From: an uncultured Azospirillum sp. | Lineage (GTDB): Bacteria; Pseudomonadota; Alphaproteobacteria; RF32; CAG-239 | Direction: 5' to 3' | Assembly: GCA_947301965.1 (NCBI GenBank) | Contig: CAMYUM010000001.1 | Location: 95,635 to 159,634, forward strand | DNA: 64,000 nt | In this document: piece after piece, positions 5,383-54,405 of the stretch | Layout of the letters: each line of letters opens with the position of its first letter | How positions within the stretch are numbered: position 1 is the first letter of the stretch | Made by a program: the position numbers and the translations under genes | Notes under the pieces: model-generated | Databases searched by the model: none | The model's input: the letters and a program-made list of their open reading frames with translations, nothing else | What the model was told of the DNA's origin: nothing

Positions 5383-7236
5383 ATGAGCGAAAAAATGAAT
5401 TTTCAGGCAGAAGTTAACAAAATGCTGAACATTGTGGTTAACTCGCTGTATTCGGAAAAGTATATCTTTTTGAGAGAGCTGATTTCAAACGCCTCAGATG
5501 CTTGCGATAAATTGAAATATTTGATGTTAAGCAAGCCGGAAATAGCCAAAGGCAACGGAGAGCTGAAAATTGTTTTGAAACCCGATGACAAAGCAAATAC
5601 TTTGACAATTTCGGATAACGGAATCGGAATGAACAAAGATGATTTGATTAATCATTTAGGAACAATCGCTAAGTCGGGAACATCGGAATTTGTTGCCAAT
5701 ATGAAAGAAAACGGTTCGGCCGCAGACCTTATCGGTCAATTCGGTGTCGGCTTTTATTCGGCATTTATGGTTGCGGATAAGGTTGAAATAGTTACCAAAA
5801 AAGCCGGAGAAAAACAAGCGTATAAGTGGATATCAAACGGGGTTGACGGTTTTGAAATCGAGGAGACCGAAAAAGAAGGAATCGGTACGGAAATAAAGCT
5901 TTATCTTAAAGCCGAGGATATGAACTTTACGGACACCATTTATTTGCGCCACTTGGTAAGGGCATATTCGGACCATATCAATTATCCGATTGTGCTGAAT
6001 ATGGGTGAAGCCGGAGAAGAAACAATAAATACCGGTTCGGCATTGTGGACGAGAAATAAGAGTGAAATCACTCAAGAACAATATAAAGATTTTTATCAGC
6101 ATATTTCGCACAACTTTGATGACCCGTGGTTAACGTTACATTTTAAGGCGGAAGGAAACATTGAATATACATCATTGTTGTTTATTCCTTCAAACCAGCC
6201 GGCGGATTTGTTCCAGCCGGATCAGAAACACGGATTAAAATTGTATGTAAACAAGGTGTTTGTTTCGGATAAAGTTGAAGAGCTGATGCCGAATTATCTG
6301 CGTTTTGTAAAGGGAATCGTTGACTCATCAGATTTACCGCTGAATATTTCACGCGAAATGTTGCAACAAAACGCATTGGTTGCAAAAATCAAGCACGGAA
6401 TCGTAGGAAGACTGCTGAAGGAATTGAAAAAGCGTGCCGAAAATTATGACGATTATATCAAGTTTTGGAACAATTTCGGAATGGCTTTTAAAGAGGGAAT
6501 TTACGAAGACTTTGCCAACAGAGAGGAAATAGCCGGATTGTCCCTGTTCAATTCTACCGAGAGCGGAGAAAAATTAACAACACTTGATGCTTATATTGAA
6601 AGAATGAAGCCGGAACAAAAGGATATTTATTATATTACCGGCGATGACGTTAAAGTGTTGGCAAATAATCCGCAGTTAGAAGCCTTTAAACAAAAAGGGT
6701 TTGAGGTTTTGTTGCTGATTGATCCGATAGATGAGTTTTGGACACAGACTTTGCCGAACTATAAAGGCAAAGCTATCAAACATATTGCTCAAGCGGATTT
6801 GGATTTTAAGATTGAGCGCAAAGAGCCCAAGGCCGACGAAGGCAGTTTGGATAAATTGCTGAAGATGATGGAAGAAATGTTTAAAGACGAAGTCGGTAAA
6901 GTTGTTGCGACCGAAAGGCTGGCATCAAGTCCGGTAAGTTTGACGGTGGAAAACGGACAAATGAGCATACACTTGGAGCGTTTGATGAGAAATCACCAAC
7001 AGCAGACGGCTTTTAATTCAACACGAATTTTGGAAGTTAATCCGTACCACCCGCTGATTATTAAGATGAGCGAGATGACGGAAGATAAGAAGAAAAAACC
7101 GGAAATTGAAAAGGTGGCAAAGATTTTGTTGGATCAAGCCAAGATTGCCGAAGGAGAGCCCGTCGGCGACCCATCGTTTTATGTAAGCACGATAAGTGAT
7201 TATATATTACAGGGGATAAGCGACAATAAAAAATAG
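5383..7236 (+). CDS. htpG: Molecular chaperone HtpG (Hsp90)
   Basis: The 617-aa protein carries the N-terminal GHKL ATPase signature NKEIFLRELISNASDA. Confidence 0.95.
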   Translation: MSEKMNFQAEVNKMLNIVVNSLYSEKYIFLRELISNASDACDKLKYLMLSKPEIAKGNGELKIVLKPDDKANTLTISDNGIGMNKDDLINHLGTIAKSGTSEFVANMKENGSAADLIGQFGVGFYSAFMVADKVEIVTKKAGEKQAYKWISNGVDGFEIEETEKEGIGTEIKLYLKAEDMNFTDTIYLRHLVRAYSDHINYPIVLNMGEAGEETINTGSALWTRNKSEITQEQYKDFYQHISHNFDDPWLTLHFKAEGNIEYTSLLFIPSNQPADLFQPDQKHGLKLYVNKVFVSDKVEELMPNYLRFVKGIVDSSDLPLNISREMLQQNALVAKIKHGIVGRLLKELKKRAENYDDYIKFWNNFGMAFKEGIYEDFANREEIAGLSLFNSTESGEKLTTLDAYIERMKPEQKDIYYITGDDVKVLANNPQLEAFKQKGFEVLLLIDPIDEFWTQTLPNYKGKAIKHIAQADLDFKIERKEPKADEGSLDKLLKMMEEMFKDEVGKVVATERLASSPVSLTVENGQMSIHLERLMRNHQQQTAFNSTRILEVNPYHPLIIKMSEMTEDKKKKPEIEKVAKILLDQAKIAEGEPVGDPSFYVSTISDYILQGISDNKK

Positions 7237-10577: not shown

Positions 10578-11717
10578 ATGTATAAGTTCTATAAGACAGG
10601 ATTTCGGAACCCGAATCTTACTTTTAAGGAAAAGTGGAACAATATTAATTTTACATATTTATTTTTTATTTTTGTGCTTGCCGCAGTCGGGGTGCTGATG
10701 TTGTATTCGGCGGCCAACGGTGTTTGGAATGTTTGGGCGCTGAAGCATGTTGTACGCTTTGCAATGGGTGCCGTTTTTATGGGCATTTTAGTGTTTGTGG
10801 ATATAAAAGTGTTTTTGCACTATGCGTATTATTTTTATGCAATAACCTTATTGCTGTTGATTGTGGTGGAAGTTGCCGGATATACCGGAATGGGAGCAAC
10901 GAGGTGGATTAATCTCGGATTTATGAAGCTGCAGCCTTCGGAGCTGATGAAAATAGCGCTGGTGTTAGCTTTGGCAAAATATTTTCATACAACGACATTA
11001 CAAAACATAGAAACTATCCGCGGAATTATTCCTCCGATTTTGATGGCGCTGGTTCCGGCGGGGTTGATTATGGCACAGCCCGACTTGGGAACGGGCGTTA
11101 TGTTGCTGATGACCACAGGGGTAATATTGTTTGTTGTCGGGGTGCAAATATGGAAATTTGCGGCAGTTGGTATCGGAGTTGCTGCCCTGATGCCGATAGC
11201 ATGGCATTTTCTGCACGATTATCAAAGACAGCGTGTGCTTACGTTTCTTAATCCGGAACGTGATCCGTTGGGCGCCGGATATCATATTATGCAATCTAAA
11301 ATTGCTCTCGGGTCGGGCGGTGTGTTTGGAAAAGGTTTTTTGAGCGGCACACAAAGTCATCTTAATTTTTTGCCGGAAAAACATACGGACTTTATTTTTA
11401 CGATGTTGTCAGAAGAGTTCGGCATTATCGGGGCTTTGTTGGTAGTGATAGTTAACTTTATGATTTTGGTTTACAGCTATTCGTTTGCTTTAAAAACAAC
11501 GAGTTATTTCGGCAAGCTGACGATTATCGGTTTGAGCACAAACTATTTCTTATATGTATTTATTAATATGGCGATGGTGCTAGGATTGATACCGGTTGTG
11601 GGAGTGCCGTTGCCGATGATTTCTTATGGCGGAACGGTGATGTTGTCGGTGATGGCAAGTTTCGGCGTGATTATGGCAATGTATGTTAATAGAGATACGA
11701 ATCTCGGAAAAGATTAA
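10578..11717 (+). CDS. rodA: Rod shape-determining SEDS protein RodA
   Basis: A 379-aa SEDS-family polytopic protein located directly after mrdA. Confidence 0.9.
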   Translation: MYKFYKTGFRNPNLTFKEKWNNINFTYLFFIFVLAAVGVLMLYSAANGVWNVWALKHVVRFAMGAVFMGILVFVDIKVFLHYAYYFYAITLLLLIVVEVAGYTGMGATRWINLGFMKLQPSELMKIALVLALAKYFHTTTLQNIETIRGIIPPILMALVPAGLIMAQPDLGTGVMLLMTTGVILFVVGVQIWKFAAVGIGVAALMPIAWHFLHDYQRQRVLTFLNPERDPLGAGYHIMQSKIALGSGGVFGKGFLSGTQSHLNFLPEKHTDFIFTMLSEEFGIIGALLVVIVNFMILVYSYSFALKTTSYFGKLTIIGLSTNYFLYVFINMAMVLGLIPVVGVPLPMISYGGTVMLSVMASFGVIMAMYVNRDTNLGKD

Positions 11718-13037: not shown

Positions 13038-13114
13038 GCGCTCGTAGCTCAATTGGATAGAGCATCTGACTACGGATCAGAAGGTTGTGAGTTCGAATCC
13101 CGCCGAGCGCGCCA
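13038..13114 (+). tRNA. tRNA-Arg (anticodon ACG)
   Basis: A cloverleaf can be drawn by hand: acceptor gcgctcg/cgagcgc, anticodon stem tctga/tcaga with loop ctACGga, T-loop ttcgaat, and an encoded CCA. The T-stem has one A-C mismatch. Confidence 0.85.
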
Positions 13115-13166
13115 GTTTTTAATCGAGGCTCCACCATTAAAGGTGGGGTTTTGTGTTTTTAAAGGT

Positions 13167-13303
13167 GGCGGTTTTCGAACTCGTGAGTTCGTTCAATTCC
13201 GGCTAAAGATTTTGTTTCACTTCGATATCTCTCGTTCACAAAATCAAGCCTCATTGTGTCTCCTTGAAAAAACTGCATTATGGCAGTTTTTTTCTTCGGC
13301 CAT
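13167..13303. repeat. Roughly 137-nt element inserted downstream of tRNA-Arg(ACG), flanked by a 67-bp direct duplication (13100..13166 and 13304..13370) of the tRNA 3' end plus terminator; copy 1 of 2 in the window
   Basis: The string ccgccgagcgcgcca plus the terminator hairpin (ccaccattaaaggtgg, T-run) is exactly repeated. The insert begins with the palindrome cgaactcgtgagttcg, built from the tRNA T-arm. It ends in a roughly 60-nt block that is almost identical to the insert next to tRNA-Arg(CCG) at 54209..54347. Confidence 0.8.
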
Positions 13304-13433
13304 CCGCCGAGCGCGCCAGTTTTTAATCGAGGCTCCACCATTAAAGGTGGGGTTTTGTGTTTTTAAAGGTTGTAGTTTTTAATTTTCAGATGATACAAAT
13401 TTGGAGTATGATTCAGCTAAACATAATTTCCTT

Positions 13434-15819: not shown

Positions 15820-16065
15820 TCAATGTTTATGTTCATCTTTGGGCGGAACAGGATCAAACCCGCTTCCTCCCCAAGGGTGACAGCGCAAAATACGCTTGGT
15901 TCCGAGGTATATACCTTTTAAAATGCCATGAATTTCGATGGCCTCAATCATATATTGCGAGCATGTCGGCTGATAACGGCAAACGTTCGGCATAAGCGGC
16001 GAGATGCATTTTTGATAAAACTTAATCAGCAGAATTATCGGCAGGCGAATTATTTTTTGTAGCAT
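15820..16065 (-). CDS. yidD: Membrane protein insertion efficiency factor YidD
   Basis: [46 protein letters not shown] is the YidD signature. An internal Met (MLQKII...) was chosen as start because the ORF extends into rnpA. Confidence 0.7.
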
Positions 16066-16438
16066 TATCGGCAATCTCCGGCATAAGACGGTGATTAATT
16101 TTTTGAAGAGCATATTGCAAGTCACGGCAGATTACAGAAAAATCAACCTCGGCGGTGGTATGACGAGCAATCAACACATAATCAAAATTCGGCAAAGCGT
16201 ATTTATCAAAAAACAATGCCGCCGCAGCTCTCAGTCTGCGACGACAACGATTACGCGTGTGAGCCTTGCCTATCTTTTTGGTGGTAGTGTATCCAATTCG
16301 GGGATGTGAGGTCGGTTCATTCAAATCGCGAGGTGCGGCTTGAAGAACCAAACTTGAGGTGGCGACACTAACCCCATGTTTTGTAAGTTTTACAAAATCA
16401 CGGCGTTTTTTTAATACCGAAAAAGATGGCATTGGCAA
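16022..16438 (-). CDS. rnpA: RNase P protein component
   Basis: A 138-aa basic protein in the rpmH-rnpA position (the RNR motif region reads [19 protein letters not shown]). Confidence 0.8.
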
Positions 16439-36284: not shown

Positions 36285-36375
36285 GGATGAGTGGCAGAGC
36301 GGCTGAATGCGCGCGATTCGAAATCGTGTTTACGGTAATCCCGTAACGGGGGTTCAAATCCCTCCTCATCCGCCA
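36285..36375 (+). tRNA. tRNA-Ser (anticodon CGA)
   Basis: Acceptor ggatgag/ctcatcc, a long variable arm, anticodon loop ttCGAaa, T-loop ttcaaat and an encoded CCA. The terminator hairpin tccgcccctatgtgggcgga plus a T-run follows at 36386..36412. Confidence 0.85.
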
Positions 36376-45975: not shown

Positions 45976-46100
45976 AAAGGCCGACCGGCGTTCTTCCGCC
46001 CGCCTTTCGCTTGTAGTCGAACCATCTTTCTCGAGGGTTCTCATCGTCCACCCACAATTCAACAACAAAAAAAACCACCATAAAGGTGGTTTTTTGTTAT

Positions 46101-46175
46101 TGGAGCGGGTGAAGGGATTCGAACCCTCGACATCAACCTTGGCAAGGTTGCGCTCTACCCCTGAGCTACGCCCGC
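46101..46175 (-). tRNA. tRNA-Gly (anticodon GCC)
   Basis: The reverse complement reads gcgggcgtagctcaggggtagagcgcaaccttGCCaaggttgatgtcgagggttcgaatcccttcacccgctcca. One C-A mismatch falls in the acceptor stem. A terminator hairpin (46074..46091) lies downstream. Confidence 0.85.
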
Positions 46176-54095: not shown

Positions 54096-54172
54096 GTACC
54101 CGTAGCTCAGCTGGATAGAGCGTTGGCCTCCGACGCCAAAGGTCGTGGGTTCGAACCCCTCCGGGTACGCCA
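54096..54172 (+). tRNA. tRNA-Arg (anticodon CCG)
   Basis: Acceptor gtacccg/cgggtac, anticodon loop ctCCGac, T-loop ttcgaac and an encoded CCA. The T-stem has one U-U mismatch. Confidence 0.85.
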
Positions 54173-54208
54173 TTTTTAAAAAAAGCCCTGTGTTTAACAG
54201 GGCTTTTT

Positions 54209-54347
54209 GCGTTCCGTCGGGGCGAACCCAGGGTTCGTTCAATTCCGACTATATCTTTTGTTGTGCTTCGATTTCATCTCGCCAACAAAAGAAAGTCTCA
54301 TTGTGTCTCCTTGAAAAAACTGCATTAGAGCAGTTTTTTCTTCGGCC
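54209..54347. repeat. Roughly 139-nt element inserted downstream of tRNA-Arg(CCG), flanked by a 52-bp direct duplication (54157..54208 and 54348..54399) of the tRNA 3' end plus terminator; copy 2 of 2
   Basis: ccctccgggtacgcca plus the terminator tttttaaaaaagccctgtgtttaacagggctttttg is exactly repeated. The insert begins with the palindrome cgaacccagggttcg, built from this tRNA's T-arm. It shares gttcgttcaattccg and the terminal block ctcattgtgtctccttgaaaaaactgcatta.agcagtttttt.cttcggcca with copy 1. Confidence 0.8.
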
Positions 54348-54405
54348 ACCCTCCGGGTACGCCATTTTTAAAAAAGCCCTGTGTTTAACAGGGCTTTTTG
54401 TGAAT

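Follow-up and report, generated by a model that had tools for sequence, protein, structure and literature searches.

Structured cassettes at the 3′ ends of tRNA genes in gut and rumen Alphaproteobacteria: a possible non-autonomous insertion element

Introduction

How does DNA come to lie inside the T-loop of a duplicated tRNA 3′ end while the tRNA gene itself stays intact? The question is raised by a 64,000-nucleotide stretch of the genome of an uncultured Azospirillum sp. (contig CAMYUM010000001.1; the whole stretch is hereafter called the window), in which a tRNA-Arg(ACG) gene is followed by a small unit that combines copies of the tRNA end with a structured passenger, here called the cargo. 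We describe this cassette and its relatives, and propose tentatively, at slightly below an even chance, that it is a non-autonomous insertion cassette, now or formerly mobile, that enters the 3′ part of tRNA genes, duplicates its target, and keeps the tRNA intact; as part of the same tentative reading, such cassettes would settle at tRNA 3′ parts in a clade of gut and rumen Alphaproteobacteria. None of the element classes tested shares this layout, which looks like a so far undescribed route for DNA to enter tRNA loci while leaving the genes intact.

tRNA genes are classic landing sites for mobile DNA, and in the known routes the incoming element itself supplies a copy of the tRNA end. In the present case, the tRNA end, the terminator, and an inverted piece of the T-arm were apparently copied from the target, and the passengers are structured cassettes of 100 to 170 nt, not genes.

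Anatomy of the tRNA-Arg(ACG) locus

The tRNA-Arg(ACG) gene (13038..13114, + strand; ARAGORN and Rfam) is intact, and its promoter, a TTGCAA-N17-TATTAA region upstream of the gene, is kept in orthologous loci. Its 3′ part opens a direct repeat (13100-13175 and 13304-13379) of 76 nt with 96% identity, the first 67 nt being exact, at a spacing of 204 nt. The first copy (13100..13175, + strand) comprises tRNA positions 62-76, the trailer, the terminator hairpin (13124-13153), and the initial 9 nt of AS, as we term an inverted copy of the T-arm. The second (13304..13379, + strand) comprises a pseudo tRNA 3′ end (ccgccgagcgcgcca), the trailer, the terminator (13328-13357), and 9 nt left over from a next AS, which read tgtagtttt in the window and ggcggtttt in other samples of the species.

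The insert between the repeats (13167-13303, 137 nt) is built of three parts: the AS, a sense copy of the T-stem (S′) following a gt, and a cargo of 111 nt. The AS (13167..13182, + strand, ggcggttttcgaactc) is the reverse complement of tRNA positions 51-66, except that the bases on the 3′ side of the T-loop are not conserved, and is 88% complementary over 16 nt to the tRNA T-arm (13089-13104, gagttcgaatcccgcc). Together with S′, which copies the T-stem 5′ strand plus TTCG, it forms the palindrome H1 (13176..13191, + strand; cgaactc-gt-gagttcg). The cargo that follows, cargo 1 (13192..13302, + strand), scores 127 bits with the covariance model described below and shows covariation; it opens with the T-loop- and T-stem-like ttcaattccggct and ends in cttcggcca. 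Within it lie a stem, H2 (13201-13204/13247-13250, 13208-13215/13238-13245, and 13219-13220/13234-13235), a conserved single-stranded block (ctcattgtgtctccttg, 13250-13266), and a terminator-like hairpin, H3 (13267-13276/13283-13292), followed by a T run.

The first-pass annotation of this locus had reported a 137-nt insert followed by an exact second tRNA 3′ end with its downstream sequence, which the repeat search bears out (67 nt exact), and had read the right-hand unit as a tRNA 3′ part with an interrupted T-loop, which also stands, the interruption measuring about 111 nt. The palindrome, which it had put at the very start of the insert, is instead the inner end of the longer 16-nt AS. That longer inverted copy had escaped it, as had the partial next unit past the second repeat, a degenerate unit at tRNA-Gly, and the unrelated cargoes found at the same T-loop position.

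Several smaller features adjoin the cassette. The T-stem of tRNA-Arg(ACG) contains an A52.C62 mismatch (13086-13102), which is native and not an insertion scar, because the same T-arm occurs in relatives with empty sites; tRNA-Arg(CCG), discussed below, has a U50.U64 mismatch (54144-54160). A mechanical open reading frame (ORF) runs across the tRNA end and the cassette in the window (13053-13382, + strand), as do public-record gene calls of 79 aa in two related contigs (L049, 6066-6305, and L053, 2996-3235, both + strand; related loci are designated by L numbers), and the element has almost certainly given rise to these calls, none of which would be a real protein gene. The rnpA gene for the RNase P protein (16022-16438, minus strand) belongs to the usual rnpA-yidC-engB cluster and is 3 kb away from the cassette, probably by coincidence.

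Independent samples reproduce the structure

An assembly artefact such as a collapsed tandem, against which the first-pass annotation had cautioned, is excluded by two independent samples of the Joint Genome Institute (JGI) from the same species (L049 and L053, reached via the RodA protein of the window), which span the locus with the same 383-nt structure and 3 differences. These differences change the tgtag after the second repeat to ggcgg and make the 76-nt repeat perfect, and the true end of the array therefore lies 9 nt into a further AS. The same architecture is present in more than 10 other assemblies, recurs across independent samples, assemblers, and more than 10 species, and carries lineage-specific substitutions together with compensatory changes. 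Some short-read contigs of the window's species do stop inside the locus (L050, L052, and L054), as is expected of a repeat; against the recurrence just described, we give a collapsed or chimeric tandem practically no weight. Contigs L002 and L008 also end inside units, repeats being a cause of assembly fragmentation.

The same plan at two further tRNA genes of the window

ARAGORN and Rfam called 4 tRNA genes in the window, and such units are borne by three of them; the gene set is completed by tRNA-Ser(CGA) (36285-36375). At the intact tRNA-Arg(CCG) gene (54096..54172), the plan is as at tRNA-Arg(ACG), executed in its own local sequences, with all parts on the + strand. The first repeat copy (54157..54209) comprises the last 16 nt of the tRNA and the terminator. 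It is followed by an AS (ccgtcggggcgaaccc, an imperfect inverted copy of the tRNA-Arg(CCG) T-arm), a single a, and the S′ gggttcg (together 54214..54237, with H1 at 54223-54229/54231-54237), by the second copy of cargo 1 (54238..54348; 135 bits), and by the second repeat copy (54349..54400), which differs from the first by one indel, having one A fewer. The two cargoes of the window have an identical 31-mer in common, where 0 would be expected by chance; the near-identical core that had been noticed at the second tRNA-Arg gene belongs to this second copy of cargo 1.

The third unit is degenerate and lies past the terminator of tRNA-Gly(GCC) (gene 46101-46175, unit 45979..46055, both on the minus strand). 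It consists, in order, of an inverted copy of the last 25 nt of the tRNA (gtgggtggacgatgagaaccctcg), agaaaga, the sense piece tggttcga, and a different cargo, cargo 2 (ctacaagcgaaaggcgggcggaagaacgccggtcggcc), a GC-rich hairpin piece. The unit is homologous to the second unit of a related locus (L006, 1888-2000).

Cargo 1 is a tRNA-linked family with a conserved structure

We used the cargo-1 core as the query of two large scans, one of 185,579 species genomes and one of JGI metagenomes. True copies came only from metagenome-assembled genomes (MAGs) of rumen or gut Alphaproteobacteria, with labels such as "uncultured Rhodospirillales," "Alphaproteobacteria bacterium," and "Azospirillum sp."; the other matches were chance matches to ribosome-binding sites. 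In all, 15 distinct copies of cargo 1 were found, every one in rumen or gut Alphaproteobacteria. A tRNA gene lies 5′ of cargo 1 in every locus with readable flanks, and no copy was seen elsewhere. The tRNA genes concerned are tRNA-Arg(ACG) (the window, L005, L013, L017, and L026), tRNA-Arg(CCG) (the window and L008), tRNA-Glu(UUC) (L004, L011, and L012), tRNA-Lys(UUU) (L006, L010, and L023), and tRNA-Lys(CUU) (L009). In the window, a covariance model built from the 15 copies recovered nothing but the two tRNA-linked copies (at 127 and 135 bits, compared with 16.5 bits and E = 0.14 for the hit ranked next), and in 216 kb of related loci it recovered only known copies. The suggestion that the core might be a generic intergenic repeat is answered by these searches, which found no copy away from tRNA genes.

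The features conserved over the 15 copies are H2 (4 + 8 + 2 pairs) and H3 (10 pairs, then the T run). In the alignment, 95.8% of the cells are paired and 10 of the 24 pairs have changed on both sides, with RNAalifold in agreement; none of 500 shuffles reached these values of pairing and covariation, and slid controls reached 44% to 57%. The fold of the window cargo copy has z = -3.4 on the + strand and -4.9 on the minus strand. Between H2 and H3, the 17-nt single-stranded block (CTCATTGTGTCTCCTTG, also written CUCAUUGUGUCUCCUUG) is identical in 14 of the 15 copies. Between orthologues, the cargo is 80% to 94% identical, compared with 56% to 88% for the adjoining trailer, terminator, and AS. 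These comparisons indicate that selection maintains cargo 1 as a structured nucleic acid, and it is probably a small RNA (sRNA). Read on the + strand, the conserved block contains CUCCUU, which is anti-Shine-Dalgarno-like. On the minus strand the block reads AAGGAG-N5-ATG, and a minus-strand small protein was considered and rejected, as frames and stops vary between copies (31, 20, 19, and 5 codons).

Empty sites, alternative cargoes, and stacked units

Orthologous tRNA-Arg(ACG) loci of relatives were fetched via RodA homologues. Besides the loci with cargo 1, we found the empty-site alleles with a single terminator that had been proposed as a check (L029/L030, L031/L035, and L034), as well as a human-gut species (L024/L025) in which the site is occupied by another cargo, cargo 3, which measures about 170 nt and is accompanied by an AS, S′, and terminal hairpin of its own and by a 140-nt repeat. 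Ten strains of this species with an identical RodA protein have 0, 1, or 2 tandem units, and the empty allele is exactly one repeat copy. The duplicated "trailer" of the species (L024, 8045-8130; the same stretch in L047) contains gggttcga and an inverted-acceptor-like piece (cgaacttgcgcccggc); even the "empty" allele seems to retain an older unit in eroded form.

Stacking is common. L006 consists of three layers, a cargo-1 unit, a cargo-2 unit, and the stump of a third AS; preservation is best in the unit next to the tRNA, and the AS copies become poorer farther away from it. L005, L008, L011, and L023 contain several, repeated, or truncated units, and the coreless unit of L005 is a secondary deletion, because the gcca scar of the cargo remains. 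Almost all arrays end in a truncated next unit with a locus-specific cut point. "Pristine" palindromes, i.e., an inverted and an intact T-arm without cargo, which might serve as landing pads, were absent from the 472 kb searched.

Other insertions were observed nearby. Between tRNA-Glu and the cargo-1 unit of L011 lies an insert of about 130 nt (5620-5820, minus strand) with its own copy of the tRNA 3′ end from aatccc and a non-local gggttcga, where the local T-loop is ttcaaat. L028 (7613-7800) has an unrelated hairpin-rich insert of 115 nt after tRNA-Arg(ACG), flanked solely by a duplicated 35-nt terminator, with neither an inverted T-arm copy nor a tRNA 3′ copy; it may be a further kind of terminator-duplicating insertion. 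L033 and L034, which have identical RodA proteins, differ by a prophage-like insertion (a DNA methyltransferase and small ORFs) in L033 from 6690 onward, which starts about 100 nt downstream of tRNA-Arg(ACG), at ...ccggactggccggg, outside the tRNA. In L023, a 6S RNA gene (11480-11633; Rfam, 52 bits) is unrelated to the cassette.

Repeats and inverted copies are made from local sequence

The terminator copies within a unit are homologous to each other at every locus, but unlike between loci and lineages (comparison of W1, L013, L005, L026, L024, L004, L012, and L009). At tRNA-Arg(ACG), the terminator is of type b in both copies in the window, of type a in all four copies of L005, of type a and then b in L013, and of a third type in both copies of L026; the 140-nt repeat of the human-gut species has yet another sequence. 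The repeats start at tRNA position 61/62 at both window sites and at all related loci, run through the local terminator for a variable length of 52 to 140 nt, and differ at each tRNA. Because they always consist of local sequence, the repeats were made on site and not carried in by the element, in line with the earlier suggestion of a local event, and the terminator pattern is one of on-site duplication followed by divergence or homogenization.

The AS behaves likewise, tracking the T-stem and T-loop variant of its own tRNA (gag in Arg-ACG and atttgaa in Glu). Longer AS copies match the local tRNA acceptor strand too, which weakens the idea of an element-borne guide. One non-local AS base (gCtt), common to copies at three different tRNAs, is left unaccounted for by local copying. 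In cargo-3 units, both H1 arms are altered together relative to the tRNA (cgaacc/ggttcg vs local gagttcg), and the hairpin itself is therefore kept.

A single set of junction rules holds for all cargo families. The 5′ edge of the T-stem (positions 49-51) marks the end of the AS; the turn measures 0 to 3 nt, with a small extra hairpin there in the Glu copies; S′ extends to TTCG or TTCGA; and the distal tRNA copy restarts in the first bases of the T-stem 3′ strand. In cargo-1 units, this distal copy is always one C shorter than the tRNA. L017 and L002, in which the cargo is not followed by a tRNA copy, both have the terminal T-stem-like motif ggccaTCCGAC in intact form, and the missing C would fit a cargo-borne ggccaTCCGAC end joined to local sequence within the shared TCC(G). 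At its other end, the first 12 nt of cargo 1 (ttcaattccgac) resemble the T-loop and the T-stem 3′ strand.

No described element class matches the cassette

The first-pass annotation had recognized no described class with this layout, and neither did we: the literature search returned no description of it, and none of the classes whose defining features we compared, namely integrase elements, miniature inverted-repeat transposable elements (MITEs), insertion sequence (IS) elements of the IS200/IS605 group, introns, and transfer-messenger RNA (tmRNA), matched overall. As in integrase elements, the direct repeats contain the 3′ part of the target tRNA gene; a fixed, element-borne attachment (att) core is missing, the repeats being locus-specific and 52 to 140 nt long. 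A MITE is rejected on the ends, ggcgg.../...cggcca, which have only a 5- to 6-nt complement, and on the variable duplication of 52 to 140 nt, and a MITE-like or repetitive extragenic palindromic (REP)-like dispersed repeat on the solely tRNA-linked hits of the covariance model in the window and the 216 kb. H1, H3, and a left junction after TTCG/TTC recall palindromic elements derived from IS200/IS605, but a long target duplication is always there. For a group II (class C) intron, a type that inserts behind terminators and is marked by ribozyme domains such as domain V, there was no Rfam match at gathering thresholds or at E ≤ 10, and the element measures only 111 to 170 nt. Against a tmRNA or tRNA-like RNA, ARAGORN and Rfam call four tRNAs only, and the unit is without a 5′ acceptor strand. 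The traits of trans-acting sRNAs are present, i.e., a conserved structure, a single-stranded conserved block, and an intrinsic-terminator-like hairpin.

Database searches were equally negative for a relative. Rfam at gathering thresholds recognized no cassette family, either in the window or across 13 related loci; for the element itself, a search up to E ≤ 10 gave no accepted family, the best match (PsrR1, RF02701; E = 0.15) being weak and non-significant. IMG/VR had no match for the core, the left junction, or the cargo-3 junction, and neither PLSDB nor INPHARED gave a blastn match. A separate IMG/VR contig (L037, 7480-8376) contains a tyrosine integrase gene with a tRNA 3′ block (tgggttcgaatcccaccctctcc on the other strand) 85 nt upstream. 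This block is preceded by a short inverted arm, cgaaccc, making an attP-like site with the same small palindrome as H1 (cgaaccc-n-gggttcg), and adjoins plastocyanin and zwf genes.

A range of crossover and strand-transfer models was tried against the junctions and the order of the parts and failed on one or the other: a tyrosine integrase acting in the T-loop, a serine recombinase crossing over at the central CG, recombination in the wrong orientation via the palindromic TTCGAA, rolling-circle insertion of the IS91/Helitron type behind GTTC, single-strand insertion of the IS608 type, target-primed reverse transcription that jumps between templates, resolution of a cruciform, and snap-back at the T-arm.

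A tentative model and its rivals

In the model that we favor, a unit would consist of four parts: an AS, which is an inverted copy of 16 to 30 nt of the local tRNA 3′ part ending at the T-stem 5′ edge; a sense copy of the T-stem 5′ strand that extends to TTCG(A) and is set off from the AS by a turn of 0 to 3 nt; a cargo of about 110 to 170 nt with its own terminator-like hairpin at the end; and a new tRNA copy that starts in the T-stem 3′ strand and takes in the CCA, the trailer, and the terminator. Entry would occur at one fixed point, the boundary between the T-loop and the T-stem 3′ strand, and the target would be copied from there to a variable point past the terminator (52 to 140 nt). A possible route is nicking of a strand at this point and then DNA synthesis by displacement or gap filling, and a duplication with one fixed and one variable end is what nicking at a fixed site and copying over a variable distance would be expected to leave. 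Through this copying of the target, the tRNA-proximal copy would stay a complete gene with its terminator and the interrupted copy would land downstream. The enzyme would be encoded elsewhere and act in trans, and the long direct repeats would allow later loss, gain, and stacking of units by ordinary recombination or slippage. Cargo-1 RNA would most likely be transcribed from the tRNA promoter through the first terminator, with the CUCCUU-containing block single-stranded and H3 as its terminator. Mobility itself is suggested by the distribution of the cassettes.

A stronger version of this model, which we think possible though rather doubtful, is that the cassettes form a new class of structured insertion element that enters at the T-arm, makes the inverted and the long direct target copies in the same event, and builds polar arrays of small-RNA cassettes. 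As part of that doubtful version, the AS would pair in a single strand with the split sense copy and so restore the target duplex, the cargo bulging out where the two parts join.

Several observations weigh against a mobile cassette. Cargo-1 copies group by tRNA site, not by genome, across species, and most insertions are therefore older than the species splits; no recent jump to a new tRNA was documented; and the polymorphism of 0, 1, or 2 units in the human-gut species needs only recombination between repeats. No recombinase, transposase, or reverse transcriptase was present among the 20 ORFs flanking both sites, all of which are housekeeping, and the genome, metagenome, viral, plasmid, and phage searches returned no longer autonomous relative of the cargo. 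None of the simple strand-transfer models that we tried yields the inverted T-arm copy plus all junctions. Regarding expression, no promoter-like site was predicted inside the element, and any expression would therefore depend on transcription that reads through the tRNA terminator; L026 has a mutated conserved block; and the cargo-1 pairs are almost purely Watson-Crick (2 G.U and 1 C.A in 360 cells), so that wobble pairs are too rare to call either the strand or an RNA as opposed to a DNA structure.

Two other accounts were weighed, each of which we consider unlikely. Under one, the cassettes are decayed or miniature att remnants of integrase-driven, cis-mobilizable elements that arose by T-loop integration, internal deletion, and tandem accretion. 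Integrases that target the T-loop are known from Ms6, with a 26-bp core that spans the T-stem 5′ strand to the acceptor (PMC1762012), as are cis-mobilizable elements (CIMEs) and tandem accretion at tRNA genes (PMC5704250); different cargoes use the same T-loop junction with the tRNA always restored, and the integrase gene of L037 lies 85 nt from a tRNA 3′ block with the same short palindrome. However, the repeat holds the local trailer and terminator, up to 140 nt, at more than 6 independent loci, unlike a pre-formed attP, and random internal deletions would not leave a 111-nt cargo with the same ends at five tRNAs. In addition, the cargo interrupts the T-loop of the distal copy instead of lying between intact att cores, the palindrome has its long arm oriented opposite to the attP of L037, and neither an integrase among the flanking ORFs nor a larger relative in the searches came to light.

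The other account, which we find similarly improbable, takes the cassettes for host sRNA genes that were never mobile as such and that reached a few tRNA loci in the distant past through illegitimate or template-switching rearrangements of a rare kind, with the T-arm, the short sequence most often repeated in the genome, as the seed; copies would have been kept since the tRNA promoter expresses them, and the repeats and inverted piece would be scars of the tandem-inversion-duplication type. The copies cluster by site rather than by genome, the account explains their age as well as the inverted piece, sequence and structure are conserved, and the CU-rich single-stranded block followed by a terminator resembles trans-acting sRNAs, the likeness to PsrR1 being weak and non-significant. 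Tandem inversion duplications in Salmonella, moreover, combine a duplication with a short inverted segment at the joint, a signature of template switching. Random rearrangement would not, however, repeat the same junction geometry for at least 4 unrelated cargoes at six tRNAs, and the lack of a predicted internal promoter and the decayed block of L026 also speak against it. Far less probable still is retro-insertion, in which abundant RNAs (a small RNA ending in ...GGCCA plus pre-tRNA) would be copied by a template-switching reverse transcriptase and the complementary DNA (cDNA) fixed at the locus. It would suit the GCCA end of cargo 1, the end of the repeat near the expected pre-tRNA 3′ end, the inverted piece that reads like cDNA of the tRNA 3′ part (in some units from the CCA end), and the 0 to 3 untemplated-looking bases of the turn; but the order of the pieces needs both sense and antisense templates, no single template-switch path was found, no reverse transcriptase was seen among the flanking ORFs, and the end of cargo 3 is not CCA.

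If the tentative model of a non-autonomous insertion cassette is true, it would point to a hitherto unknown strand-transfer or repair pathway at T-arms, and part of the "junk" and of the spurious small ORFs annotated beside tRNA genes in these gut bacteria would be explained. The cassettes are also a candidate regulatory RNA family whose copy number differs between strains of a common human-gut species. A practical warning is that cassette loci break short-read assemblies and attract false gene calls.

Comparison with known systems

The closest known systems are tRNA-targeting integrative elements and integrase-less CIMEs, which undergo tandem accretion (PMC5704250), together with the T-loop attB of Ms6 (PMC1762012). 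Like these, the cassettes are tied to the tRNA 3′ part or T-loop, keep the gene intact by duplicating its 3′ end, stack at one tRNA, and, as recombinase-less units, could move in trans. Unlike them, a cassette unit measures 137 to 320 nt instead of kilobases, its repeat is local, variable, and extends through the terminator in place of a fixed att core, and it has an abutting inverted T-arm copy, a cargo inside the distal T-loop, and no nearby integrase.

With MITEs, REP sequences and REPINs (REP doublets that form hairpins), and elements derived from IS200/IS605, the cassettes share a small, noncoding, hairpin-rich, multicopy nature, and they too would have to be moved by a protein supplied from elsewhere. 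They differ in having neither MITE-type terminal inverted repeats nor a short fixed target duplication, in residing only at tRNA 3′ ends, and in an AS and S′ that copy the local target.

In clustered regularly interspaced short palindromic repeats (CRISPR) and in casposon integration, a staggered attack on both sides of a segment leads to duplication of that segment, and new units are added at one end. The resemblance of the cassettes to this process would be one of topology only, by analogy: a fixed "leader" (the tRNA) followed by a hairpin-containing duplicated segment, with the new unit by the leader and older, eroded units distal to it. In contrast, the duplicated segment of the cassettes is variable (52 to 140 nt), the "spacers" are a few conserved cargo families, and no cas genes are in view.

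Trans-acting sRNAs such as cyanobacterial PsrR1 (RF02701) also have stem-loops, a single-stranded CUCCUU block, and a hairpin with a U run, and, as for sRNAs from tRNA 3′ external spacers, the position just past a tRNA gene would allow co-transcription; the cassette differs in having neither a match at the Rfam threshold (best E = 0.15) nor its own predicted promoter. Tandem inversion duplications and quasipalindrome template switching likewise give a direct duplication, a short inverted joint piece, and palindrome arms kept complementary, but they are one-off events, whereas the cassette geometry recurs with defined cargoes at many tRNAs. Finally, the folded-hairpin substrates of other systems, the integron attC and the attP of the CTX phage, would be comparable under the doubtful stronger version of the model, in which a similar folded single strand would be aimed at the T-arms of tRNA genes.

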